From Candidatus Neomicrothrix sp. UBA2131 (lineage in GTDB: Bacteria; Actinomycetota; Acidimicrobiia; Acidimicrobiales; MedAcidi-G1), in assembly GCA_002329075.1 (NCBI GenBank), contig DCXR01000074.1, positions 18,083 through 82,082 on the forward strand: a DNA stretch of 64,000 bases, in the 5' to 3' direction. A program made the translations under genes and the position numbers. The notes beneath the pieces are model-generated. The model saw only the letters and a list, made by a program, of their open reading frames with translations, was not told the DNA's origin and made no database searches. Shown here one piece after another: positions 2,208 through 61,618 of the stretch (position 1 is its first letter; every line of letters starts with the position of its first letter).

Positions 2208-3230
2208 TCAGCCGGCGAGCAGGCCGGTGCCCACCCGTCGTCGGTGGTGGGCGGCGTCACCCCAGGAGGCCGACAGCGCCCAGCCGCGCTTGAGCCAGAG
2301 TTGGAGGTCGTGCTCGATCGTGTAGCCGATGGCGCCGTGGCACTGGAGCGCCGACCGGCACGCCAGGTCGACGGCATCGGATGCCAGCGCCTTGGCCATC
2401 GCCACGTCGACGGACGGATCACCACCCTCCGGGCCCTCGCCGTGTGCCAACACCCAGGCGGCCTTGTGGACCATCGGTGCAGCGAACTCGAGGGCGATCG
2501 CCACGTTCGAACAGTGGTGCTTGACCGCCTGGTTGACGCCCACCGGCCTCCCGAACTGCTCCCGTTCGGCCACATAGGCCACCGTCATGTCGAGCAGTCG
2601 ACGCCCCACCCCGACGGCCTGTGCGGCGGCGGCCAACGCCCCCCGGTCGAGCACCTCGCCGACCACAGACGGTTCCTCGCTGACGAGGGTGTCGGGGGAC
2701 GGCGTCCAGTCGACCCGTGCGAGGCGGCGGGCGCGGTCCACGCTCTGTCGCGACACGGACGAGAACCTGCCGGCCGGAACAGCGTGCACCTCGCTGCCGG
2801 CGCACATGAGCGCCAGGTCGGCACGCTCCGCAGCCAGCACGAAGGCATCGGTGGGCGCTCCGGCGGTGAGCACCGCCGAACCGTCGGCGGCCCGGCCCAG
2901 CCACTCGGCGGCGAGTGGCCCGGGGGCGTGGTCGCGCAGGATGGGGATGGCGACGGCGGCATGTTCAGCGACCGGCTCGGGGCAGGCGGCGTAACCGAGT
3001 TCCTCGAGCAGCAGCACCAGGTCGCAGGTCGACATGCCGAGGCCGCCGTGGTCTTCGGGTGCGGCCACGCCGAGCACCCCGGTCGCAGCCAGGGTCTCCC
3101 AGAGGCCGGGTGCCCGGCCCGCGGGGTCGTCCCATGCGGCCCTCACGGCGGACGGCGGGCACTCGTTGGCGAGAATGCCCCTGACGGTGTCGGCGAACAG
3201 GACCTGATCGTCGGTGAAGGCGAAGTGCAT
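2208..3230 (-). CDS. Acyl-CoA dehydrogenase family protein, probable non-catalytic partner subunit (IpdE2/FadE33-like)
   Basis: Trimmed to MHFAFTDDQVLFADTV... (ATG 3228-3230). ACAD-like middle and C-terminal domains are present (REQFGRPVGVNQAVKH, HGAIGYTIEHDLQLW). It lacks the terminal xGTxEIQ segment that the adjacent ACAD retains. Confidence 0.7.
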   Translation of the reverse strand: MHFAFTDDQVLFADTVRGILANECPPSAVRAAWDDPAGRAPGLWETLAATGVLGVAAPEDHGGLGMSTCDLVLLLEELGYAACPEPVAEHAAVAIPILRDHAPGPLAAEWLGRAADGSAVLTAGAPTDAFVLAAERADLALMCAGSEVHAVPAGRFSSVSRQSVDRARRLARVDWTPSPDTLVSEEPSVVGEVLDRGALAAAAQAVGVGRRLLDMTVAYVAEREQFGRPVGVNQAVKHHCSNVAIALEFAAPMVHKAAWVLAHGEGPEGGDPSVDVAMAKALASDAVDLACRSALQCHGAIGYTIEHDLQLWLKRGWALSASWGDAAHHRRRVGTGLLAG

Positions 3231-8908: not shown

Positions 8909-8921
8909 CCGATCTGATCGG
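8909..8921. promoter_or_regulatory. 13-bp palindrome CCGATC-T-GATCGG just upstream of the cysH start
   Basis: Perfect 6-bp arms with a 1-nt spacer, 3-15 nt upstream of the candidate cysH starts. It could be a protein site or a 5'-UTR hairpin. Confidence 0.3.
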
Positions 8922-8935
8922 AATTGCCCCACACC

Positions 8936-9634
8936 ATGCCCACCGCGACCCCGACCCCCGTACGACTGCGCCGCCCGGCCGCCCTGTCCGCGGCCGAGGT
9001 CGACGCGCTGAACGAGCGGTTCGAGGCGGCACACCCGGCCGAGGTCATCCGCTGGGCCACCGACGCCTTCGGCGACGGACTCTGCCTCACCACCTCGTTC
9101 TCCGACACCCTGCTCGTCGACCTGGCCGTGGCCGTCGACCCGGACATCGAGGTGGTGTTCCTCGACACCGGCCTCCACTTCGCCGAGACCCTCGACACCC
9201 TGCGGCGGGCGATGGTCCGCTACGGACTCCACCTCCGGGTCGAACGGCCTGACGGCGATGCCCCCGACCTCTTCGAACTCGGCACGGACGCCTGCTGCGC
9301 CTCCCGCAAGGTGGCCCCACTGGATCGGGCGCTGGCCGACAAGCGGGCCTGGCTCGCCGGCATGCGCCGCGACGACCACGCCGGGCGGGAATACACGCCC
9401 ATCGTGCAGGTCGACCGCCGGGGCCTGGTCAAGGTCAACCCCCTCGCCGCCTGGCCGGCCGCAGAGGCCGACGCCTACGCCGCCGAACACGACATCGTCC
9501 TGAATCCGCTCCTGGGAGAGGGTTACGAATCCGTCGGGTGCTGGCCGTGCACCGAGCGCCCGACCGATGGCGCCGACGCACGCAGCGGCCGCTGGGCGGA
9601 CAGCACCAGGACCGAATGCGGAATCCACCTGTGA
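8936..9634 (+). CDS. cysH: Adenylyl-/phosphoadenylyl-sulfate reductase (thioredoxin-dependent), Fe-S type
   Basis: PAPS_reduct-fold motifs and the C-terminal ECGIH are present. The CC...CWPC cysteines are typical of the Fe-S (APS) type. ATG 8936 was chosen; the ORF track's TTG at 8924 is also possible. Confidence 0.9.
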   Translation: MPTATPTPVRLRRPAALSAAEVDALNERFEAAHPAEVIRWATDAFGDGLCLTTSFSDTLLVDLAVAVDPDIEVVFLDTGLHFAETLDTLRRAMVRYGLHLRVERPDGDAPDLFELGTDACCASRKVAPLDRALADKRAWLAGMRRDDHAGREYTPIVQVDRRGLVKVNPLAAWPAAEADAYAAEHDIVLNPLLGEGYESVGCWPCTERPTDGADARSGRWADSTRTECGIHL

Positions 9635-10293
9635 GCAGCCACCCCTACCCCGTAAACCTGGACCTCTCCGGGCGCAACGTGCTCGTGGTCGGGGCCGGAG
9701 CCGTGGCCGAACGCAAGGTGCAGGGCCTGGTGGCCGCCGGCGCCCGGGTCACCGTCGTCGCCCCCGAGGCCGTACCCGAACTGGTCGAGGCCGCCGAGAA
9801 CGGTGCCGTCCGCTGGCACCAGCGCACCTACCGCCGGGGCGAGGTGGCGTCGTACCGCCTGGCCGTGGCCGCCACCGGCGACCCCGACGTGAACGGTCAG
9901 GTCCACTGGGACGCCGAGGCTGCCGGCGTCTGGCTGAACGCAGCCGACGACCCCGACCGCTGCTCCTTCACGTTGCCCGCCGTCATACGCCGCGACGACC
10001 TCCAGGTCGCCGTCTCCACCAACGGTCGCTCACCGGCCGTGGCCGCCTGGCTGCGCCGCTCCCTCGAGGAGTCGATCGGACCCGAGCACGCCTCGCTCCT
10101 CGCCCTTGTCGCCGAAGTGCGTGAGGACCTCCGGGTCGAACGCTCCACCACCGAAACCTCCGACTGGGAGGCCGCCCTCGATGGGGACCTGCTCGACCTG
10201 ATCCGGAGCGGCGACGTCGACGGTGCACGCCTCCGACTCCGCCGGGCCCTCGGACTCCCCGGGGCCCCCACCCTCGAAGAGGTTGCGTCATGA
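9631..10293 (+). CDS. Precorrin-2 dehydrogenase / sirohydrochlorin ferrochelatase (SirC/CysG N-terminal-domain type)
   Basis: Trimmed to GTG 9631, overlapping the cysH stop (GTGA). It has a Rossmann motif (VLVVGAGAVAERK) and siroheme-synthase N-domain-like sequence (VSTNGRSPAVAAWLR). Confidence 0.8.
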   Translation: MSSHPYPVNLDLSGRNVLVVGAGAVAERKVQGLVAAGARVTVVAPEAVPELVEAAENGAVRWHQRTYRRGEVASYRLAVAATGDPDVNGQVHWDAEAAGVWLNAADDPDRCSFTLPAVIRRDDLQVAVSTNGRSPAVAAWLRRSLEESIGPEHASLLALVAEVREDLRVERSTTETSDWEAALDGDLLDLIRSGDVDGARLRLRRALGLPGAPTLEEVAS

Positions 10294-11063
10294 CGGTGTA
10301 CCTCGTCGGTGCAGGCCCGGGTGATCCCGACCTTCTCACGCTTCGCGCCGCCCGCCTGCTGGCCGAGGCCGACGTCGTGGTCCACGACAGACTGGTCGAC
10401 CCCCGGGTACTCGACCTGATCTCCCCGTGGGCAGAGGTGGTCGACGTCGGCAAGCACCCCGGCGGCCCGGCCGACGCCCAGGGGCGCATCCACCGACTGC
10501 TCGTCGGTGCCGCCGGCCGGTACGCCACCGTCGTGCGCCTCAAGGGCGGCGACCCGTTCGTATTCGGCCGCGGTGGCGAAGAGGCCGCAGACCTGCTCAG
10601 GCAGGGAATCGACGTCGAGGTCGTCCCCGGCATCACGTCGGCCATCGCCGGTCCCGCCGCCGCCGGCATCCCCGTCACCATGCGGGGCCACGCCAGCGGA
10701 TTCACCGTCATCACCGGCCATCAGGACCCCACCAGCGCACGCAGCATCGACTGGGAGGCCGCTGCACGCCTCGGCACCACGCTCATCGTGTTGATGGGCG
10801 CCTCGCGGGCGGGCCTCATCGCCGAACGACTCCTGCTCGGCGGCCTCGACGCCGACACCCCTGTCGCCGTGGTCGAGTCGGCCACCACGCCCGACCAGCG
10901 GGTCGCCCACACCGTCCTCGCCGACCTCCCGGAGACGCCTGTCCATGCACCGGCAATCCTCGTCATCGGCTCGGTCGCCGGCCTCGACGTCACGGACGCA
11001 GCACTCGACGACCTGGTCGCCACCACAGCCGGCGAACACGGAGGTTCGTCATGGCTCAGGTGA
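10290..11063 (+). CDS. cobA: Uroporphyrinogen-III C-methyltransferase (SUMT)
   Basis: MTVYLVGAGPGDPDLLTLRA..., VVRLKGGDPFVFGRGGEE, VPGITSA. The ATGA overlap links it to the previous gene. Confidence 0.9.
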   Translation: MTVYLVGAGPGDPDLLTLRAARLLAEADVVVHDRLVDPRVLDLISPWAEVVDVGKHPGGPADAQGRIHRLLVGAAGRYATVVRLKGGDPFVFGRGGEEAADLLRQGIDVEVVPGITSAIAGPAAAGIPVTMRGHASGFTVITGHQDPTSARSIDWEAAARLGTTLIVLMGASRAGLIAERLLLGGLDADTPVAVVESATTPDQRVAHTVLADLPETPVHAPAILVIGSVAGLDVTDAALDDLVATTAGEHGGSSWLR

Positions 11064-12841
11064 CCAGCCCGCTCGAGACCGCCCCCATCGATCCGGAGAT
11101 CGCCGCCGACATCGACAAGTTCGATGAACAACTCGCCGGCTACTTCGCCGGGCGCGTCCCCGAGGACGTGTTCCGGGTCTTCCGGCTCAACAACGGCATC
11201 TACGGCCAACGCCAGGGCGGCACCAACCAGATGGTGCGCGTCAAGGTCCCCTACGGCGCCATGACCGCCGACCAACTCGACCTGCTGGCCGACGTCATCG
11301 TCGACCACAGCCGCGGCTGGGGCCACATCACCACCCGTCAGAACATCCAGTTCCACTTCGTGGAACTTGCCGTGGTCCCCCGGGTCATGCGCCGACTCGC
11401 CTCCGTGGGCCTCACCACCCGGGAGGCCTGCGGCGACACCGTCCGCAACGTGCAGGGCTGCCACCTGGCCGGCGCCTGCCCCTACGAGGTGCTCGACATC
11501 AGCGCCTGGTCCGAGGCCGCCTACCGGCACTTCGTCCGCAACCCGATCAGCCAGCGCCTCCCCCGCAAGTTCAAGATCAACTTCTCGGGCTGCGACACCG
11601 ACTGTGGGCAGGCCATGTTCAACGACGTCGGCGTGATCGCCGCCTCGCGCACCCATCCCGACAACAGCGTGGAACAGGGATTTCGGGTCTACATCGCCGG
11701 CGGCCTCGGCACGACACCGTTTCCAGCCCTTGCGCTCGAAGAGTTCACGTCCCGCGAGGACCTGCTCCCCACGATCGAGTCCGTCCTGCGGATCTTCGAC
11801 CAGACGGGCAACCGCGACAACAAGCTGCGGGCCCGCCTCAAGTGGGTCGTCGACCAGCTCGGCATCGACGAGGTCCGCCGCCGGGTGATGGCCACACGGA
11901 AGTTCCTGCCCGCCTCGGCGACCTGGCCGGGAGGCATCCCCGACATCGTCACCGACTGGGGCGACGACCCGGCAGGCGTCGCCGCCGACGCCACCCCGAC
12001 CCTGGTCGGCCAGGGCGTGCCCGTGTCACTCGGGGCCAGGACCCCGTTCGACCGGTGGGCCGAGGCCAACGTCGTGCGCGGTGCCGCCAACGGCACCGTG
12101 TCCGCCTACGCCTGCTGCGAACTGGGCGACGTCACCGCCGACCAGTTCCGGGCCCTGGCCGCCATCGTGCGCGAGTTCGACACCGATGCGCGGGTCACCA
12201 ACCGGCAGAACTTCGTGCTCCGCGACCTCACCGAAGACCAGCTGCCCGCCCTGTTCCAACGGCTCGTCGACGCCGGCATGGCGACGCCCGGCGCCGAACT
12301 GCTGCGCGACGTCGTGGCCTGCCCGGGCGCCGACACCTGCAACCTGGCGGTCACCCAGAGCCGCGGCCTGGCGAAGGCGATCGGCGAGGCGCTCGATGCC
12401 GAGGGCCTGGCCGAGGTCGGCGGCGTGCGCATCAACATCTCGGGCTGCACCAACAGTTGCGGCCAGCACCACACTTCCGACATCGGGTTCTTCGGCGCCG
12501 AACGGCGCGCCCACGGCCAGTCGGCCCCCGGCTACCAGATGCTGCTGGGCGGCTACGTCGGCCAGGAGCAGGTCCACTTCGGGCATAAGGCGTTGCGCCT
12601 CCCCGCCCGCAACGCCCCGCAGGCAGCCGTGCAGGTCGTCCGACGGTTCGTCGACGAGCGTCAGGCAGGCGAGAAGTTCCCGACCTGGCTGGAGCGCTCG
12701 GGTGGCGCCGGGGAGGTGGCGATCGGCCTCAAGGTGCTCGACCAGTTCCCGCTGCCCGACGAGGCCCCCGACTACTACGTCGACTTCGACGAGACCGGCC
12801 CCTACTCGGCCGAGGTCGGCGAGTCGGAGTGCGCCACCTGA
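11051..12841 (+). CDS. sirA: Ferredoxin-dependent sulfite reductase (NirA/SirA type)
   Basis: Trimmed from ORF 10427..12841 to ATG 11051 (MAQVTSPLE...). It has duplicated nitrite/sulfite-reductase half-domains and siroheme/4Fe-4S Cys motifs (ACPGADTCNLA, SGCTNSCGQHH). Confidence 0.9.
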   Translation: MAQVTSPLETAPIDPEIAADIDKFDEQLAGYFAGRVPEDVFRVFRLNNGIYGQRQGGTNQMVRVKVPYGAMTADQLDLLADVIVDHSRGWGHITTRQNIQFHFVELAVVPRVMRRLASVGLTTREACGDTVRNVQGCHLAGACPYEVLDISAWSEAAYRHFVRNPISQRLPRKFKINFSGCDTDCGQAMFNDVGVIAASRTHPDNSVEQGFRVYIAGGLGTTPFPALALEEFTSREDLLPTIESVLRIFDQTGNRDNKLRARLKWVVDQLGIDEVRRRVMATRKFLPASATWPGGIPDIVTDWGDDPAGVAADATPTLVGQGVPVSLGARTPFDRWAEANVVRGAANGTVSAYACCELGDVTADQFRALAAIVREFDTDARVTNRQNFVLRDLTEDQLPALFQRLVDAGMATPGAELLRDVVACPGADTCNLAVTQSRGLAKAIGEALDAEGLAEVGGVRINISGCTNSCGQHHTSDIGFFGAERRAHGQSAPGYQMLLGGYVGQEQVHFGHKALRLPARNAPQAAVQVVRRFVDERQAGEKFPTWLERSGGAGEVAIGLKVLDQFPLPDEAPDYYVDFDETGPYSAEVGESECAT

Positions 12842-17767: not shown

Positions 17768-18697
17768 GTGCCCACCGACCGGAAGATCCTCGTCACCGGC
17801 CTGACCGGCCAGATCGGCCATCCCGTGGCCCGGATCCTGGCGCAGGACAACGAGGTGTGGGGGGCCGCACGCTTCTCCGCCGAGGACAGCCGGGAGCGGG
17901 CCGAGTCGATCGGGGTCAGGACGGTCGCGGTCGACCTCGAGACCGGCGACTACACCGGACTCCCCGACGACTTCACCCACGTTGTGCACTTCGCCGCCTG
18001 GATGGGGCCCCGTCCCGACCACGAGCGGGCGCTGCGGGCCAACGCCGAGGCGACCGGGCTGCTGATGCAGCACTGCCGGTCGGCCGAGGCGTTCCTCATG
18101 GCATCCACCAACTCGGTGTACCGACCCAACGCCGACCCCTGCCACCGCTACACGGAGGACGATCCGCTCGGCGATCCGACCTCGCCGTTCAGCCCCACCT
18201 ACTCGATGTCGAAGAACGCCCAGGAGGCCGTGGCCCGCACCATGTCCCGGGCACTCGGGCTGCGCACCACGATCGCCCGCATCAACGCCAGCTACGGCCC
18301 CAACGGCGGCCTGCCCGCCTACCACGGCGACTGGATGGCCGCCGGCCAGACGGTCCACCTGCGGGCACCCGGCCCCAACCCCTACAGTCCGATCCACGAG
18401 GACGACCTGGGCGCCCAGGTGGCGCCGCTGCTCGACGCCGCCTCGACGCCTGCCACGATCGTGAACTGGTGTGGCGACGACGTGGTGACCGCCGAGGAGT
18501 GGTGTGCCCTGTTCGGCGAATGCCTCGGCGTCGAGCCGGAACTCGTCTACGACGAGGTGCCCGGCAGCCAGCCCGGAAGCGCTGCCGACCCGACACGGCG
18601 CCTCGAACTCACCGGTCCGTGCACGGTGCCGTGGCGCGACGGCATGGCGGCGATGCTCGAAGCGCGCAGCGCCGGCGCCGCACCGGCCCGCAACTAG
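17768..18697 (+). CDS. NAD-dependent epimerase/dehydratase family protein
   Basis: GTG start. It has an extended-SDR N-terminus (ILVTGLTGQIGHPV) and a YSMSK (YxxxK) catalytic motif. Confidence 0.8.
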   Translation: MPTDRKILVTGLTGQIGHPVARILAQDNEVWGAARFSAEDSRERAESIGVRTVAVDLETGDYTGLPDDFTHVVHFAAWMGPRPDHERALRANAEATGLLMQHCRSAEAFLMASTNSVYRPNADPCHRYTEDDPLGDPTSPFSPTYSMSKNAQEAVARTMSRALGLRTTIARINASYGPNGGLPAYHGDWMAAGQTVHLRAPGPNPYSPIHEDDLGAQVAPLLDAASTPATIVNWCGDDVVTAEEWCALFGECLGVEPELVYDEVPGSQPGSAADPTRRLELTGPCTVPWRDGMAAMLEARSAGAAPARN

Positions 18698-27871: not shown

Positions 27872-29071
27872 CTAGGTCGCGACGACTCCGCGCTCTACCA
27901 GTGAGCCGATCTCGGTGGCACCGAGGCCGAGGTCGTCGGCGAGCACCTGCTCGGTGTGCTCGCCCAGCCGTGGCGCCGTTGCCGCACCCCGTCCCTCGAC
28001 CCCGGCGAACGCCAGCGGCGAACCGCACACCAGGTGGCGGCCCACGCCGGGCTGGTCGAGGTCGGCGAACAGCGGGTTGACCGTCGAGCACCTCTGGTCC
28101 TCGTCTACCATTTCGATGAAGGTCCGGTAGGGACCCCAGCACACGCCCTCGGCATCGAGACCGGAGGCGACCTCAGCGAGCGTGCGTGCGGCGAACCATG
28201 GCCCGAACAGGCCGCCGAGCCGGTCGCGGGCGAGGTAGCGCTCTCCCTCGTCGGCGAAGTCGACGCCCAACTCGTCGGCCAACGCCTCCACGGCATCGGT
28301 CGTACCCGTGGCCGACTGGAGGCCCCGCCACTGCTTCGGACTGATCGCCACGACCATGACCCGGCGGCCGTCCCCGGTCGGGAAGTCTGAGCCGTAGGCG
28401 CCGTAGAGGTCGTTGCCGATGGCCTCCCGCTGCGTACCGAGCAACTGGGCCTCGGCCAGGGAGCCGAGCATGGAGACCGTCGCCAGCGCCACATCGGACA
28501 GGGCAAGGGTCACGAGGTCGCCTACTCCCTCGAGGATCCGTCGCCGGTCGGCGGCGAGGAGGCCCACGGCGGCCATCTGCCCGCACACCAGGTCCCATGC
28601 CGGTACCACGTTGTTGACGGGCCGGGGGTCGTCGGCATGTCCCGTGGCCGACGGGTAGCCCACGGCGCAGTTCACCGTGTAGTCGACAGCGGTGGTGCCG
28701 TCGTGGTTGCCGGTGATGGCGACCATCACCAGGCCGTCTCCGCGCTGACGCAGCGATTCGTACGACAGCCATCCGACGGCCGGGAAGTTGGTGAGGAAGT
28801 TGCCGGCCCGTCCGACCAACTCGGCGACCAGGTCCTGTGCCTCGGGGTCCCCGAGGTCGACCGCCAGCGAGCGCTTGCCCTTGTTGAGTCCGTTCCAGTA
28901 GAGGCTGGCGCCGTCGGGGGTGAGCGGCCAGCGCCGGTGGTCGATGCCGCCGCCGATGCGGTCGAAGCGGATGACATCGGCCCCCAGTTGGGCCAGCGTC
29001 ATGCCACCCGACGGTGCGGCGACGAAGGCGGAGCCCTCGACGACCGTCAGGCCCTCGAGCGGAAGCGACAC
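27872..29071 (-). CDS. CaiB/BaiF family III CoA-transferase
   Basis: 399 aa with a GTG start. The family opening is LEGLTVVEGSAFVAAPSGGMTLAQLGADVIRFD. The start lies 5 nt after the peroxiredoxin stop. Confidence 0.85.
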   Translation of the reverse strand: MSLPLEGLTVVEGSAFVAAPSGGMTLAQLGADVIRFDRIGGGIDHRRWPLTPDGASLYWNGLNKGKRSLAVDLGDPEAQDLVAELVGRAGNFLTNFPAVGWLSYESLRQRGDGLVMVAITGNHDGTTAVDYTVNCAVGYPSATGHADDPRPVNNVVPAWDLVCGQMAAVGLLAADRRRILEGVGDLVTLALSDVALATVSMLGSLAEAQLLGTQREAIGNDLYGAYGSDFPTGDGRRVMVVAISPKQWRGLQSATGTTDAVEALADELGVDFADEGERYLARDRLGGLFGPWFAARTLAEVASGLDAEGVCWGPYRTFIEMVDEDQRCSTVNPLFADLDQPGVGRHLVCGSPLAFAGVEGRGAATAPRLGEHTEQVLADDLGLGATEIGSLVERGVVAT

Positions 29072-29076
29072 GCTCT

Positions 29077-29544
29077 CTAACTCAGCGTGGCTATGTCGGC
29101 CAGCAGGTCGGCGGCGTGCTCGTCGAGCGTCGTCGAGGCGTTGAGGTCGTAGGCCCTGGCGATGGTGCCGTCGGGGCCGATCAGGTAGGAGATGCGCAGC
29201 GGGAAGGCTGCGAGTCCCCCGTCTTCCGGCCGTAGCACCTCGTAGGCCTCGCCCATCGTCCGGTCCGGGTCGGCCAGCAGGGCGTACGGGAACTGCTCGC
29301 TCTCGGCGAAGGCCTTCTGCTCCTCGACGGTGTCGAAGCTGGCGCCGACGATCACGGCGTTGGCGCCGGTGAACTCGGGGGCTCGATCACGGAGCCCCCC
29401 TCCTTCGATCGTTCAACCGGGGGTGCTGGCCTTGGGGTACCACCACAGGGCCACCCACCTGCCGGCCAGGTCGTCGAGGGTGACGGTGTTGCCGTCCTGG
29501 TCGGGCACCGAGAATGCCGGCGCCGCGGTTCCTGCTTCGAGCAT
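29077..29544 (-). CDS. Bcp/PrxQ-type peroxiredoxin with in-frame TGA at the peroxidatic position (candidate selenoprotein, 155 codons)
   Basis: ATG 29542-29544 is preceded by AAGGA. Translation gives ...WVALWWYPKASTPG-TGA(29413-29415)-TIEGGGLRDRAPEF...VIVGASFDTVEEQKAF..., and it runs in frame into ORF 29077..29355. The TGA replaces the Cys of the PxxxTxxC motif. Confidence 0.7.
29377..29399 (-). promoter_or_regulatory. SECIS-like hairpin GGGGGCUC-CGUGAUC-GAGCCCCC
   Basis: Perfect 8-bp GC-rich stem with a 7-nt loop containing GU. It starts 13 nt after the in-frame UGA, so the apical loop lies 22-28 nt downstream, within the range described for bacterial SECIS elements. Confidence 0.6.
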
Positions 29545-29611
29545 CGTGGTCCTTTCAGGTCCGGGGGTCGATCGATGACGACCCTAGTTGGCGGCCGCGA
29601 GGATGGCCCGA

Positions 29612-32563
29612 TCAGTCGTCGAGGGCCTCGACCATCACCGAGTCGACGGACACGGCGGGTTCGTCCACATCCGGTTCGTCATCGTCGCCTTCGAACGCCT
29701 CGTCGAGTACCGACATGGCCTCTTCGAAGGCGTCGAAGACCGCGTTGTCGCCTGTGCCGCAGGCGAGGAAGAAGCCGTCGATCGCATACTCGGCCTCGCC
29801 GGGATCCTCGAACCCGTACTCCGACCCCAGGGTTTCGAGGGATGCCAGTTCGGGCAGGGCGGAGAGGAAGTCGTCCTTGCCGTCGAAGGCGTCGGCCACC
29901 CCGGCGGCCGCCGCGGACAGGTAGGCGGCGTTCGGCTGGAGTACGTCAGGGAGTTCGCCGACCAGCCAGGCCGCGTAGTCGCCGCCGGCACGCATGGTGT
30001 CGGCAAGGTCGGTGGGCGTGGCCGGTCGCCGATCCATGGAAGCGAGCGCCGTGGCCACCCGGGCTTCGTTGTCGGCGCAGAGGCCCTCTGAGGCGGTCGG
30101 ACCGTCGTAGGCGTCGGGCACGGGAACCTCCTCGAGGATCCCGACCTCGCCGTACTCGGGCTCGAGGTGGGCGCAGGCGGCATAGGCGGCGTCGTTGCGG
30201 TCCTGGAACTCCTCGGTCCACTCCTCGTTCCACCATCCGGGGCCACCCATCTCGGCGTCCATGCACTCCTCGTGGGCGACCCAGGCCTCGGTCGAGGCGA
30301 TCTGCTCCTCGATCCACCTCTTCTCGTCGTCGGGAGCCAGTTCGACGCACGACTTCATGCCCTCGAGGTACGCCGACTGGGACCATTCGTCGTCGGAGCT
30401 GACGTGGCCCCCCATGCACTCCTCGTACGGGAGCATCTCCTCCATTTCGACCAACCACTCCTCCATCTCGGCGCGCTGACCCTCGGGTGCGAGCGACACG
30501 CACTCGCTCATGCCCCGGACGTAGGCGGCCTGTGACCACTCCTCGTCGTCGAAGCCGATGTGGCCCTCCATGCACTCCTCGTACGGGAGCATCTCCTCCA
30601 TCGACTCGAGGTCACGCAGCATTTCGGCCTGAGCGTCCTCGGGCAACAGCGGCAGGCAGTCGCGCATGGCCTTGGTGTACGCCACCGACGACCACGAGTC
30701 CCGCGGCACCGCATCCTCGAGGCATTCCTCGTAGGGGCCCCACTCCTCGTCGTAGCCGCCCCGGTCGTCATCGTCCCAGTCGCCGTCACCCGCACAGGCC
30801 CCGAAGGCGAAGCCGCCGCCGTCCGAGACGGCGTCGGCGGGGTCACCGCAGCCGGAAGCCAACTTCTCGTCGTCGGAACCCGGATCGGAGTAGTCCCAGA
30901 GCACGTCGCAACTCCACGGGTCGCCGGACGTGCAGTCCCCGGCCAACACGGCCGGGTCGATCTCGGGCATGGCGGACTCGGTGCGCAACGCACCGGCACT
31001 CGTGCTCGACGGGTAGTCGTCGTTCGGTTCCATCGCCTGGTCCATCCCGCCCTCGGCCTTGCCGTCGCCGCCCATCAACTCCTCGGAGGCACCGAGGATC
31101 TCGCCCGCCGCCACGGGTGCGAGGAGGACGTCCTCGATGCCGAGGCCGATGTCGTCGAAGGCGCCCGAGAGTGCTGCGTCGAGCACCACGGCCATGTACT
31201 CGACCACGGTCTCGACCGGGCTGAGGTACCACGAGCCGTCGATCCTGCGCGTCACGACGAACAGGCCGTCGACGCCCAGGCCCGGTATGGCGTCCTCGAG
31301 GCAGCCCTCGTGCAGGCCCGTCGACCGGTCGGGGCCACCTTCGTCCTGCAGGTCGGCCAGGTAGTCGAACGCCGCACAGGTACCCCGGATCGTCAGCGTG
31401 GCGTCGGCGGACGCAGAACCCGCACCCTCGGGAAGGGTCAACGACCCGACCAGGTGCAGTACGACATCGGATACCACGACCTTGGTGCGTTCTTCGTCGA
31501 GCACCTCCTCGGTGGTGCCGATCTCGAGCGTGATGTCGAGTGCCGGCTCCATCTCGGCGACGAGGTCCTCGACCATGTCGGCCATCTCGTCGGTGTCCAT
31601 CTCCATCCCGTCGGGCACCGACTCGTTGACCTCGTCGAACAGACCCTGGAACATGGGGAGGTGGTCGAGGAACACGGACATCTCGTCGGGTGCGACCGGG
31701 ATCACCCCCTGGAGGGGATCCGCCAGGTCGATCGAGGGCACGAGCACCCCGGTCCGTATCTGGGCCAGCGCGGCATCGACCTCGGTATCGAAGTCGAAGC
31801 CGTTGACCTGGTCGACCACCACCTGGAGCACCCCGGAGGCGCTGTCGGTGCCCGCCGGCAGGCCGACCGTGGAGCCCTCGTAGTCGACCGGAGGCAGGTC
31901 GAGGAGCGTCCTCACGTATTCGAAGGAGGTGTAGAGAGGGCTCACGAACCAACGGCCCCGCTCGTGGACGACCATCACGAAGAGTTCTGATGGAAGCCTG
32001 ACGTCGAGGAGGTCGCCCGACTCGTAGGCGGCCGCCTCCTCGGCCAGCATCTCGTTGATCTCACCGAGCGTGATCGACTCGTCGACGGCCTCGGCCCCCT
32101 CCCGGAGGTTGGCGTCCATGGCCGACGGATCGACCGTGATACCGAGGCCGCCGTCGACGAGGTACACCTTGTGGACCCGTTCGTGGAGTGCGTCGACCCG
32201 GATGTCGAGGTCGGCGACCTGGAGGTCGATTCCTGCAAGGGGGTCGCTGCCGGCCAACGCCCCCTCCTTCTGCGCCAACTCGATCACCCGCGTGTAGAGG
32301 TCGACGGCATGGCCGACCTCGGACGGCGGAAGCATGGCCGCTGCACCCACCACGTCCTCGGCGGCCAGCGCCACGGCGAGGCCGTTGACGGCCTCCTCGG
32401 GAGAAGCCGCACCGATCACCGAGCCCTCGGAGGCGGAGCGCAGGCTCAGGATGACGGCGACGACGACGACCGCCGCCACGAGTGCCCCCAGAAGTGTCCA
32501 GCGCCTCGAACCCGAGGCCCGGCTCGCTTCACCTACGTGGTCGGGTACCGCCGTCGCGTCCAT
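29612..32563 (-). CDS. Large, extremely acidic, N-terminally membrane-anchored protein of unknown function (983 aa) with Cys-pair tandem repeats
   Basis: Long ORF with GC3 bias. Its antisense partner ORFs are His/Arg/Leu junk. The N-terminus has a basic patch followed by a TM helix (SRRWTLLGALVAAVVVVAVILSL). The rest is D/E-rich with very few K/R. I recognise no family. Confidence 0.8.
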   Translation of the reverse strand: MDATAVPDHVGEASRASGSRRWTLLGALVAAVVVVAVILSLRSASEGSVIGAASPEEAVNGLAVALAAEDVVGAAAMLPPSEVGHAVDLYTRVIELAQKEGALAGSDPLAGIDLQVADLDIRVDALHERVHKVYLVDGGLGITVDPSAMDANLREGAEAVDESITLGEINEMLAEEAAAYESGDLLDVRLPSELFVMVVHERGRWFVSPLYTSFEYVRTLLDLPPVDYEGSTVGLPAGTDSASGVLQVVVDQVNGFDFDTEVDAALAQIRTGVLVPSIDLADPLQGVIPVAPDEMSVFLDHLPMFQGLFDEVNESVPDGMEMDTDEMADMVEDLVAEMEPALDITLEIGTTEEVLDEERTKVVVSDVVLHLVGSLTLPEGAGSASADATLTIRGTCAAFDYLADLQDEGGPDRSTGLHEGCLEDAIPGLGVDGLFVVTRRIDGSWYLSPVETVVEYMAVVLDAALSGAFDDIGLGIEDVLLAPVAAGEILGASEELMGGDGKAEGGMDQAMEPNDDYPSSTSAGALRTESAMPEIDPAVLAGDCTSGDPWSCDVLWDYSDPGSDDEKLASGCGDPADAVSDGGGFAFGACAGDGDWDDDDRGGYDEEWGPYEECLEDAVPRDSWSSVAYTKAMRDCLPLLPEDAQAEMLRDLESMEEMLPYEECMEGHIGFDDEEWSQAAYVRGMSECVSLAPEGQRAEMEEWLVEMEEMLPYEECMGGHVSSDDEWSQSAYLEGMKSCVELAPDDEKRWIEEQIASTEAWVAHEECMDAEMGGPGWWNEEWTEEFQDRNDAAYAACAHLEPEYGEVGILEEVPVPDAYDGPTASEGLCADNEARVATALASMDRRPATPTDLADTMRAGGDYAAWLVGELPDVLQPNAAYLSAAAAGVADAFDGKDDFLSALPELASLETLGSEYGFEDPGEAEYAIDGFFLACGTGDNAVFDAFEEAMSVLDEAFEGDDDEPDVDEPAVSVDSVMVEALDD
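30130..30745 (-). repeat. Four tandem about 52-codon repeats inside the acidic protein gene (consensus PYEECM-x8-W-x3-AY-x3-M-x2-C-x2-L-x-P)
   Basis: An identical 33-nt block, catgcactcctcgtacgggagcatctcctccat, occurs at 30413-30445 and 30569-30601, a period of 156 nt. The protein repeats start PYEECLEDAV, PYEECMEGHI, PYEECMGGHV and AHEECMDAEM. Confidence 0.8.
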
Positions 32564-59911: not shown

Positions 59912-60556
59912 TCAGGATCGGATGACCACCGGGACGCAGTCGGCGTCGGACGTCCAGGCGAACAGCACCAGCTGGGGTTCGTCGGTCGTGACGGTGGCGT
60001 GGCGCGTGCCCGTCGGGTGGAAGATCGTGGCGCCCGGTCCACGGCTGGTCCACTCGTCGCCCATCTGCCAGTCGGCGGTGCCTGCGACGACCCAGAAGGC
60101 CTCGGTGGCCTTGTGGACATGCGACGGGTACGTCACCCCCGGTCCCTGGATGACGGCGCCGGCGAAGACGTCTTCGCTGGCGTAGAGCGGGGACGGTTCC
60201 TCGAGGATGCCGCTGCTGATCGGATTCGTGCCAACGATCGGGGCATAGGCGTAGTTGGCCCGCATGTGGTCCATGTCGGGCTCGCCGATGTGCTCCGGGT
60301 ACGGGATCGCCCAGCCCACGCTGTCGGCCACGAGGTGCAGCAGGTCGCCCGCCGCACCGACGGTGGCGCCGAGACACGTGCCGAGGTGTTCGTCGATGAC
60401 CGGATAGGTCGGTCGGACACCCGGGGTGACCCGCGTACAGCGTTCGAGGGCGTCGACCAGGTTGGCCATGGCGTCGGCCATGGCTGGATCACGGGCGGCC
60501 TCGGCGTGGGCGAACCCGATGAATCCGGCGAGGAACGGGCCTGCAGGGCCGCTCAT
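59912..60556 (-). CDS. Cupin-domain protein (DMSP-lyase DddL-like family resemblance)
   Basis: Both cupin motifs are intact (G-VTYPS-HVH-KAT-E-AFWVVA-G and G-ATIFH-P-T-G-TR-H). ATG 60556 was chosen; GTG 60565 is possible. The DddL-like label is from memory and has low certainty. Confidence 0.7.
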   Translation of the reverse strand: MSGPAGPFLAGFIGFAHAEAARDPAMADAMANLVDALERCTRVTPGVRPTYPVIDEHLGTCLGATVGAAGDLLHLVADSVGWAIPYPEHIGEPDMDHMRANYAYAPIVGTNPISSGILEEPSPLYASEDVFAGAVIQGPGVTYPSHVHKATEAFWVVAGTADWQMGDEWTSRGPGATIFHPTGTRHATVTTDEPQLVLFAWTSDADCVPVVIRS

Positions 60557-60589
60557 CGCGCGCACCCTAGACCCGGCGTGCGGTACCGC

Positions 60590-61378
60590 TCAACGGTCGG
60601 TGAAGGTTGCCTTGCCGGGGCCGTGCTCGAAGAACGACGCCACGCCGCTGGCGGCGTCGGCGCTCTCGAAGACCTCCATGAACAGGTCGAGTTCGAGGTC
60701 GACGCCGTCGGCGAGCGTGCCCTGGATGCCCTCGTCGATGGCCCGCTTCGAGGCCCGCAGGGCGATCCGGGGACCATTGGCGTAGCCGGTGGCCCGCTCG
60801 ACGGCCCGATCGAGCACCTGGTCGTCGGGAACGACCTCGTCGACCCATCCGATGGCAAGCGCCTCGGGGGCCTTCACCTGGGCACCGCCCCAGATCAACT
60901 CCTTGGCCTTCGTTACCCCGACGAGGCGGGCCAGGCGCTGGGTGGCGCCACCACCGGGGATGAGGCCGAGCAGCACCTCGGGCTGGCCGAACACGGCACC
61001 CTCGCCGGCGATCCGGAAGTCACAGCACATGGCCAGTTCGGCTCCACCACCGAGGGCGAAGCCGTTGACGGCGGCGATGGTCGGGCAGGGCACGGTCTCG
61101 AGGGCGGCGAACCCGGACCGGAAGGCGTCGCCCTGGGCCTGGCGGAAGGCTGGGTCGGCGAAGACCGTCAGGTCGGCGCCGGCGGCGAAGTGCCGTCCAC
61201 CTCCGGTGAGTACCAGGGCACCGGGCGGTTCGGCATGCAGTGCCCCGGCCAGGTCGCCGATCTCGAGGAGCAGCGCCGTGTCGAGGGCGTTGACCTTGGG
61301 CCGGTCGAGTGTCGCGATGACGACGTCGTCGTCGGTCCGCTCTATGCGCAGGAACTCGAAGTCAGGTGGAGAGGTCAC
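60590..61378 (-). CDS. Enoyl-CoA hydratase/isomerase (crotonase) family protein
   Basis: Trimmed to GTG 61376-61378. It has the oxyanion and catalytic blocks FAAGADL, NGFALGGGAELAMCCDFRIA and GLIPGGGATQRL. Confidence 0.9.
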   Translation of the reverse strand: MTSPPDFEFLRIERTDDDVVIATLDRPKVNALDTALLLEIGDLAGALHAEPPGALVLTGGGRHFAAGADLTVFADPAFRQAQGDAFRSGFAALETVPCPTIAAVNGFALGGGAELAMCCDFRIAGEGAVFGQPEVLLGLIPGGGATQRLARLVGVTKAKELIWGGAQVKAPEALAIGWVDEVVPDDQVLDRAVERATGYANGPRIALRASKRAIDEGIQGTLADGVDLELDLFMEVFESADAASGVASFFEHGPGKATFTDR

Positions 61379-61618
61379 GGCCGGGAGGGTAGTGAACGGG
61401 CGGCGAATCGAAACTCCCCAGCCACAGGTAGGCGCGGGTACGGCCCTTCGGCCAGTTTCGCGGGGAATCCGCCGTCCTGGCCCGGCCGGGCGGGGTGGCC
61501 TCCCGGGAGGCCGACGAGTTCGCCCGGACCCGCTCGCTTGTGTCCAGCCCTGCCCGGCCCGCGGCCCTGCGGACCGGCTGGCCACTCCCGGCCGGCAGCG
61601 TCCGCCGCACCGGCTCGC

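Follow-up and report, generated by a model that had tools for sequence, protein, structure and literature searches.

A predicted BCP/PrxQ-like selenocysteine peroxiredoxin with a conserved bacterial SECIS hairpin in marine Acidimicrobiales

A peroxiredoxin gene with an in-frame TGA

We analysed a 64,000-nucleotide (nt) stretch of DNA, hereafter the window, from Candidatus Neomicrothrix sp. UBA2131 (Acidimicrobiales; assembly GCA_002329075.1, contig DCXR01000074.1, forward-strand positions 18,083 to 82,082), and we focus here on a minus-strand peroxiredoxin gene (prx) that carries an in-frame TGA at its catalytic position. A first-pass annotation, made from the sequence without database searches, had proposed that this TGA encodes selenocysteine (Sec) in a Bcp/PrxQ-type protein, with a bacterial selenocysteine insertion sequence (bSECIS) directly downstream. 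The conservation of the TGA, the coding constraint around it and the covariation of the hairpin all support that proposal, and judging from these sequence comparisons the gene very probably encodes a selenoprotein, a BCP/PrxQ-like 1-Sec peroxiredoxin of 155 residues with Sec at position 44.

The list of open reading frames (ORFs) in the window holds the gene only as two pieces, one of 43 residues (29413..29544) and one of 92 residues (29077..29355). The latter, which the first-pass annotation had correctly reported, corresponds to residues 64–155 and is opened by a GTG (29355). When the minus strand is instead translated from the ATG at 29544, it reads MLEAGTAAPAFSVPDQDGNTVTLDDLAGRWVALWWYPKASTPG, then TGA (29415..29413), then TIEGGGLRDRAPEF..., and ends at a TAG codon (29079..29077; Table 1). 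G+C contents at codon positions 1/2/3 are 0.65/0.58/0.88 before the TGA and 0.70/0.48/0.90 after it, so that the third-position bias continues unchanged across the stop, as had been described. An AAGGA motif does precede the start codon, although the offset of 7–11 nt given for it was one base out. Of the 34 genes in the window that have Pfam support, 23 end in TGA as their ordinary stop, so the genetic code has not been reassigned across the genome.

Table 1. Features of the peroxiredoxin locus, in window coordinates
Feature	Position	Strand	Remarks
Complete predicted selenoprotein gene	29544..29077	minus	155 codons (154 standard + 1 predicted Sec) + TAG; BCP/PrxQ-like peroxiredoxin
Shine-Dalgarno-like AAGGA	29554..29550	minus	5 nt ahead of the start codon (-10 to -6 from ATG); read off the sequence
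ATG start codon	29544..29542	minus	start at the aligned position in 80/80 relatives
N-terminal coding part, residues 2–43	29541..29416	minus	holds Pro37 and Thr41 of PxxxTxxU; stop-free in 81/81
UGA codon (predicted Sec), residue 44, peroxidatic position	29415..29413	minus	TGA in 80/80 related loci
bSECIS hairpin	29399..29377	minus	5' arm 29399..29392, loop CGUGAUC 29391..29385, 3' arm 29384..29377
C-terminal coding part, residues 45–155	29412..29080	minus	holds conserved catalytic Arg117
True stop codon TAG	29079..29077	minus	from the translation
CoA-transferase family III gene	29071..27872	minus	GTG start 5 nt past the prx stop; Pfam CoA_transf_3, E = 1e-55

The TGA occupies the peroxidatic position of a BCP/PrxQ-like enzyme

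Profile searches were run on the 155-residue protein with Cys put in at the TGA. They recovered an essentially full-length AhpC/TSA domain (Pfam AhpC-TSA, PF00578; 113.2 bits, E = 9e-33, cut-off 26, profile positions 2–122 of 124), and of the 14 PDB matches with E ≤ 1e-10, every one is a peroxiredoxin, either of the BCP/PrxQ type or with a generic name, the best at E = 1e-18. In the Xanthomonas BCP/PrxQ structures, the TGA codon is aligned to the catalytic Cys of YPKDSTPGCT, bearing out the earlier suggestion that the stop stands in for the Cys of the PxxxTxxC motif, and Arg117 is aligned to the conserved catalytic Arg of X. campestris BCP. The active site is thus complete (P37-x3-T41-x2-U44 plus Arg117), and these residues are conserved in the 80 orthologues described below. 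At the level of NCBIfam, the top match is Bcp (PRK09437), whose 97 bits lie below the equivalog cut-off of 140; PrxQ (NF053650) scores 78 against a cut-off of 260 and the PrxU equivalog (NF040737) 39.8 bits against 270, and none of the NCBIfam selenoprotein models reaches its cut-off on this protein.

In BCP/PrxQ proteins of the atypical 2-Cys form, a resolving Cys lies either five residues after the peroxidatic Cys or in helix alpha-3. The window protein has none: Gly stands five positions after Sec (U+5), and Ala is aligned to Cys84 of X. campestris. The protein holds no Cys at all, and neither do 69 of the 80 orthologues, most of which have Gln or Gly at U+5. Since a resolving Cys is missing from the window protein and from most orthologues, the enzyme is best described as a 1-Sec peroxiredoxin, as had been anticipated from the Gly at U+5; its absence is compatible with the BCP/PrxQ subfamily, as 1-Cys BCPs exist. 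The sole orthologue with Cys at U+5, the canonical resolving position of BCP, is L079 (PGUTIEACGF; L079:3130-3183), possibly a two-residue variant that would pair Sec with Cys. Its hairpin is also the weakest of the set.

TGA and its coding context are conserved across the order

One scan of species-representative genomes yielded 80 related loci, and counts of 81 given here are these loci plus the window. Nearly all come from marine Acidimicrobiales or from metagenome-assembled genomes (MAGs) labelled 'Microthrix', at 54–90% protein identity to the window; six lie on complete chromosomes (OZ241836.1, OZ220474.1, OZ241886.1, OZ244836.1, OZ241903.1 and OZ220491.1), and the nearest species representatives, NAT100 and ActinoDeep01, share approximately 90% DNA identity with the window. 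The aligned codon is TGA in 80 of 80 loci and never TAA or TAG, across Sec forms whose pairwise identity has a median of 58% and falls as low as 43%. A start codon lies 43 codons before the TGA in every relative (ATG in 78, GTG in two). The 43 N-terminal codons contain no stop in any of the 81 sequences, and their mean pairwise differences at codon positions 1/2/3 are 0.27/0.21/0.55, from which it follows that the N-terminal part is translated and that purifying selection acts on it. Residues 45–63, between the TGA and the internal GTG, are likewise conserved in frame at the protein level.

These comparisons bear directly on the simplest alternative, in which a recent nonsense mutation (TGC or TGT to TGA), or a sequencing or assembly error, has turned an ordinary Cys-peroxiredoxin into a pseudogene. 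The change would take a single base, and gene callers give only fragments of the gene. Yet all 80 assemblies, which are independent and span different species as well as different studies, have the TGA, the identical 92-residue fragment occurs on 233 contigs, both halves of the gene are under purifying selection with no other lesion, and a conserved RNA structure lies downstream. The first-pass annotation had itself named the pattern that would point to a pseudogene, namely a Cys codon and an unconserved hairpin in close relatives; what the relatives have is TGA throughout, with a hairpin kept by compensatory changes. We reject a pseudogene or an error as already refuted by the conservation of the TGA and the coding constraint, and leave it a negligible probability.

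One of the loci, L053 (PAQX01000033.1), lies in a bin labelled Deltaproteobacteria and carries an Acidimicrobiales-like Sec-type prx (58% identity) with a different downstream structure. Either the contig is mis-binned or the gene occurs outside the order.

The downstream hairpin has the geometry and covariation of a bacterial SECIS

Thirteen nucleotides past the UGA lies the hairpin GGGGGCUC-CGUGAUC-GAGCCCCC, an 8-bp stem closed by a 7-nt loop, with a folding energy of -16.2 kcal/mol. It falls within codons 49–56 (GGLRDRAP), its apical loop is 21 nt from the UGA, and loop position 2 is G, followed by U. Published bSECIS criteria ask for a loop of 3–9 nt, a stem of 4–16 bp, a G in the first two loop positions, a spacing of 16–37 nt and a minimum free energy (MFE) of at most -7.5 kcal/mol (PMC13188914), and 78 of the 81 elements satisfy them, including the one in the window, where the first-pass annotation had rightly placed a perfect 8-bp hairpin. 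The loop CGUGAYC at 21-nt spacing recurs in 71 of 81 sequences.

When the 81 sequences are aligned without gaps over 54 nt from the TGA onward (A1), the helix is paired in 84.9% of cells, compared with 17–61% in registers slid by 1–3 columns. Cells with changes on both sides of a pair number 39, against 3.8 ± 2.8 in shuffles, none of which reaches 39 in 500 attempts. Pair 22/34 occurs as U-A, C-G and U-G, coupling Leu/Phe (CUC/UUC) to Ala/Thr (GCC/ACC), and pair 21/35 occurs as G-C, A-U and C-G, coupling a synonymous Gly change to a shift from Thr/Ala to Ile/Val/Ser. Because these compensatory pairs alter amino acids, RNA pairing is evidently kept at the expense of the protein sequence.

Codon choice within the hairpin points the same way. 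Arg+8 is CGT in 80 of 81 sequences (background in the window, 7.7%), Arg+10 is CGA in 76 (5.3%), Gly+6 is GGG in 71 (14%) and Asp+9 is GAT in 50 (7.4%); judged from these frequencies, the near-fixation of rare codons reflects synonymous constraint. A covariance model of the hairpin (R1) scores the prx element at 43.8 bits (E = 8e-10), its only real match in the window, where the next best reaches 12 bits; in 76 Sec loci, too, it picks out the prx SECIS only. Its fit to the coding sequence of prx is probably too close for finding other SECIS elements.

Two further structures were noted. In L076 and L078 (both labelled 'Mycobacteriales', from soil; ~3130-3183), a variant SECIS has a stem of 7 bp (GGCGCUG/CAGUGCC) and a loop of 5 nt, CGUGA or, in L076, CGGGA, with the spacing again 21 nt. 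Most sequences could also form a lower helix around the UGA (GAAC/GUUC), but we do not claim it, as it shows no covariation and is confounded by coding.

Cysteine-type homologues mostly lack the hairpin

Homologues with Cys at the same site provide a natural control. Eight full-length proteins (P0002, P0007, P0008, P0011-13, P0016 and P0018) have Cys there, in the context YPKASTPGCT or FYPEADTPGCT. The DNA of eight Cys forms shows a TGC codon, varied Arg codons and, in most cases, no hairpin; their mean MFE is -5.3 kcal/mol versus -11.5 kcal/mol for the Sec set, and the hairpin covariance model has no match in the Cys-type loci. Particularly informative is P0002 (L081:170-640), which is 76% identical to the Sec form L072 (3001-3468), a value above the median between Sec forms and above the 61% that L072 shares with the window type. 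By this similarity, P0002 nests inside the Sec clade, in what looks like a Sec/Cys switch within the family in one direction or the other, and it has neither the hairpin nor the fixed CGT and CGA codons. As its hairpin has decayed despite 76% identity to L072, the hairpin tracks the TGA and not the protein sequence.

In Cys-type P0008 (L083:739-1203), a mini-hairpin CCUG-CGUGA-CAGG resembles the variant SECIS of L076 and L078 and may be a SECIS remnant or precursor. Trp ('W') stands at the catalytic site in two further full-length database entries, P0001 and P0006, and in P0006 at later TGA stops too; it arose artificially, because genes on these contigs were called under an alternative genetic code.

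The linkage of hairpin and TGA also bears on whether translation might genuinely end at the stop, yielding a peptide of 43 residues, a C-terminal thioredoxin-fold protein with its own initiation and no catalytic residue, or both, with the hairpin serving, for example, mRNA stability or translational coupling. The GTG at 29355 does open a 92-residue ORF, and the case for Sec decoding is an indirect one. A functional terminator, however, would have to account for a stop that is never TAA or TAG in 81 sequences and that coincides exactly with the catalytic residue, in a site that is intact apart from it (Pro37, Thr41 and Arg117), for the in-frame conservation of residues 45–63 ahead of the internal GTG, and for a hairpin that fits SECIS rules and is mostly lost where the codon is TGC. 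We regard genuine termination as extremely improbable.

Weighing selenocysteine against other ways of decoding the UGA

Several results weigh against Sec insertion by a SECIS. The single-sequence fold is only moderately unusual (z = -2.2 for 61 nt; 7 of 200 shuffles are as stable), the conserved helix spans 6–7 bp, with the outermost pair of the window element kept in 12 of 77 distinct rows, and the elements of the divergent loci L007, L079 and L080 fall below bSECIS thresholds. Scanned at gathering thresholds, the whole window matches no Rfam family; bacterial SECIS elements are sparse in Rfam. Components of the decoding machinery are also missing from the DNA searched: ARAGORN detected no tRNA in either the window or L001-L060, Pfam scans of approximately 40 window proteins found no SelA, SelB or SelD domains, only housekeeping and catabolic genes, and tblastn with E. 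coli SelA, SelB and SelD as approximate queries gave no match in the window plus 89 loci (581 kb). Our conclusion that the element exceeds chance does not depend on the single-sequence fold, because it draws on the TGA in 80 of 80 loci, the covariation of the hairpin and the synonymous constraint.

That the machinery is missing from the DNA searched does lend something to a different proposal, in which the hairpin assists recoding to a residue other than Sec. Bacteria may pair SECIS-like elements with tRNA(Sec)-like Cys tRNAs, so that Cys could be inserted by such a tRNA with a SelB-like factor, or Trp or Cys by a near-cognate tRNA, and the enzyme would be a thiol peroxidase or inactive. However, a plain TGC would give Cys free of cost, and a change to TGC does occur in the family and is followed by loss of the hairpin. 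The position, the TxxU motif and the SECIS shape are those of established Sec-peroxiredoxins (PMC13188914), and the sister order has canonical machinery: all 84 complete genomes of Actinomarinales, in the class Acidimicrobiia, encode selA, selB, selC and selD (bioRxiv 10.64898/2026.04.03.716425). We therefore consider recoding to another residue quite improbable. Likewise, it is very improbable that the order-wide combination of UGA and hairpin is decoded by anything other than canonical SelB and Sec-tRNA(Sec); if it were, abundant ocean bacteria would share a widespread signal that recodes UGA to something other than Sec.

A crude scan for other read-through genes, in which a TGA joins same-frame segments, turned up nothing but neighbouring genes that are separate from each other (NMO/acyl-CoA dehydrogenase, sulfite reductase/MBL and amidohydrolase/O-methyltransferase), which were rejected; the scan is insensitive, and its thresholds missed prx itself.

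Public annotation and genomic neighbourhood

The first-pass annotation had predicted that standard gene callers would mis-annotate the gene, and public records bear this out, carrying fragments of 43 and 92 or 110 residues, or W at the codon. Selenoproteins of this known class are regularly divided in two by gene callers, and ENA gene calls split this one into 43 and 92 residues. Names given to the pieces include 'hypothetical protein', 'peroxiredoxin Q/BCP' or 'redoxin domain-containing protein' [Acidimicrobiaceae bacterium], and across hundreds of public contigs, Tara Oceans included, the gene is either cut up or given a Trp. An exact look-up of the 155-residue product with X, W or C at position 44 found it absent from the collection. 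At least one pipeline does read through the TGA, since in GCA_030745785.1 (JASLNW010000011.1; L091:9528-9995) the same DNA is listed by NCBI as a single 155-residue call.

The CoA-transferase gene that follows prx is probably co-transcribed with it. A homologue is present at 37 of the 80 Sec loci, downstream and on the same strand in 31, and the identical protein is found on Tara Oceans and other marine contigs and in the MAG GCA_030745785.1. Directly upstream of prx lies a 983-residue ORF (29612-32563, minus strand) with strong coding bias (GC3 0.89), recognizable in 5 of 80 loci and without a match in Pfam or NCBIfam.

Elsewhere in the window, a DMSP (dimethylsulfoniopropionate)-lyase-like cupin (PF16867, E = 5e-19) directly adjoins an enoyl-CoA hydratase (59912-61618, minus strand), plausibly a DMSP/acrylate catabolic pair in keeping with a marine origin. 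At 8918-12841 (plus strand), genes for PAPS (3'-phosphoadenosine 5'-phosphosulfate) reductase and sulfite reductase (NIR_SIR) lie near each other on the same strand as an assimilatory sulfate-reduction cluster, which may be relevant to selenium handling.

Discussion

Peroxiredoxins with a TxxU motif are an established selenoprotein family (PMC13188914, PMC2398784, PMC5029168), and by motif and domain the gene described here belongs to it, sharing with the family (PF00578; Zhang & Gladyshev) the AhpC/TSA domain, Sec in place of the peroxidatic Cys and a bSECIS immediately downstream. The family numbers 253 members in surface-ocean reads from Global Ocean Sampling (GOS), where it is among the most abundant selenoprotein families (PMC2398784), and 91 genes in 78 sequenced bacterial genomes (PMC5029168). 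The first-pass view that such proteins are known from a few anaerobes and would be unusual in Actinomycetota was therefore overstated, all the more so as selenoproteins of Actinobacteria were catalogued earlier (PMC1794560) and Sec machinery is reported throughout Actinomarinales (bioRxiv 10.64898/2026.04.03.716425). In the literature searched, the family surveys list marine sequences without assignment to Acidimicrobiales; here the Sec form is fixed in all 80 relatives recovered, and the window protein is BCP/PrxQ-like and Cys-free. Our literature search on selenoproteins in Acidimicrobiales, Ilumatobacter and marine Actinobacteria had as its one specific result the Actinomarina preprint, which does not mention peroxiredoxin (bioRxiv 10.64898/2026.04.03.716425), and it yielded no paper assigning Sec-peroxiredoxin to Acidimicrobiales.

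Comparison with characterized systems places the gene more closely. According to Sohling et al. 2001, as cited in PMC13188914, a Sec-peroxiredoxin was verified experimentally in Eubacterium acidaminophilum. The corresponding PrxU of Eubacterium (Peptoclostridium) acidaminophilum (NF040737) likewise has Sec at the peroxidatic position and SECIS decoding, which is predicted here; its model, however, spans 233 positions versus 155 residues here, its host is a strict anaerobe as opposed to marine Acidimicrobiales, and the best matches of our protein are BCP/PrxQ. With Cys-type BCP/PrxQ proteins (E. coli Bcp, PRK09437; X. campestris PrxQ, PDB 3GKK/5IIZ) it has in common the fold, the YPKxSTPGxT motif and the conserved Arg, but these have Cys where our gene has its predicted Sec, and both of their usual resolving-Cys positions lack Cys here (Gly and Ala). 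The hairpin resembles the E. coli fdhF-type SECIS (the bSECISearch consensus) as a stem-loop in the coding region 3' of the UGA, with an early G-U in the loop, comparable spacing and a stem of 7–8 bp. It differs in having an unrelated primary sequence and a 7-nt loop, CGUGAYC, that hardly varies within the order.

Under the selenoprotein reading, the ribosome would reach the UGA and the hairpin 13 nt on (7–8 bp, loop CGUGAYC, G-U at loop positions 2–3) would act as a bacterial SECIS, recruiting SelB, GTP and Sec-tRNA(Sec) so that Sec is inserted and translation does not terminate. As in other members of the family, the selenolate would then reduce H2O2 or an organic hydroperoxide and become a selenenic acid. 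Because there is no resolving Cys, an external thiol, most likely thioredoxin, would be needed to reduce the selenenic acid.

The family also illustrates how a SECIS constrains the protein that it lies in (R-D-R-[A/T]-[P/S]), a constraint that is relaxed on the switch to Cys. The near-invariant element (stem plus CGUGAYC, 21 nt from the UGA) provides a lineage-specific means of searching for more selenoproteins and of studying SelB recognition. The resulting comparative SECIS data set is a clean one. These results leave the known picture of Sec biology unchanged; the gene is a lineage-wide addition to a known selenoprotein family and no surprise to specialists. For the organisms themselves, the fixation of a Sec codon in every one of the 80 species-level genomes recovered would make marine Acidimicrobiales (Microtrichales-type) Sec decoders with a requirement for selenium. 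Sec decoding in Acidimicrobiales would extend the result of the 2026 preprint on Actinomarinales, and the order is a likely taxonomic home for part of the 'Prx' selenoproteins in the GOS reads.

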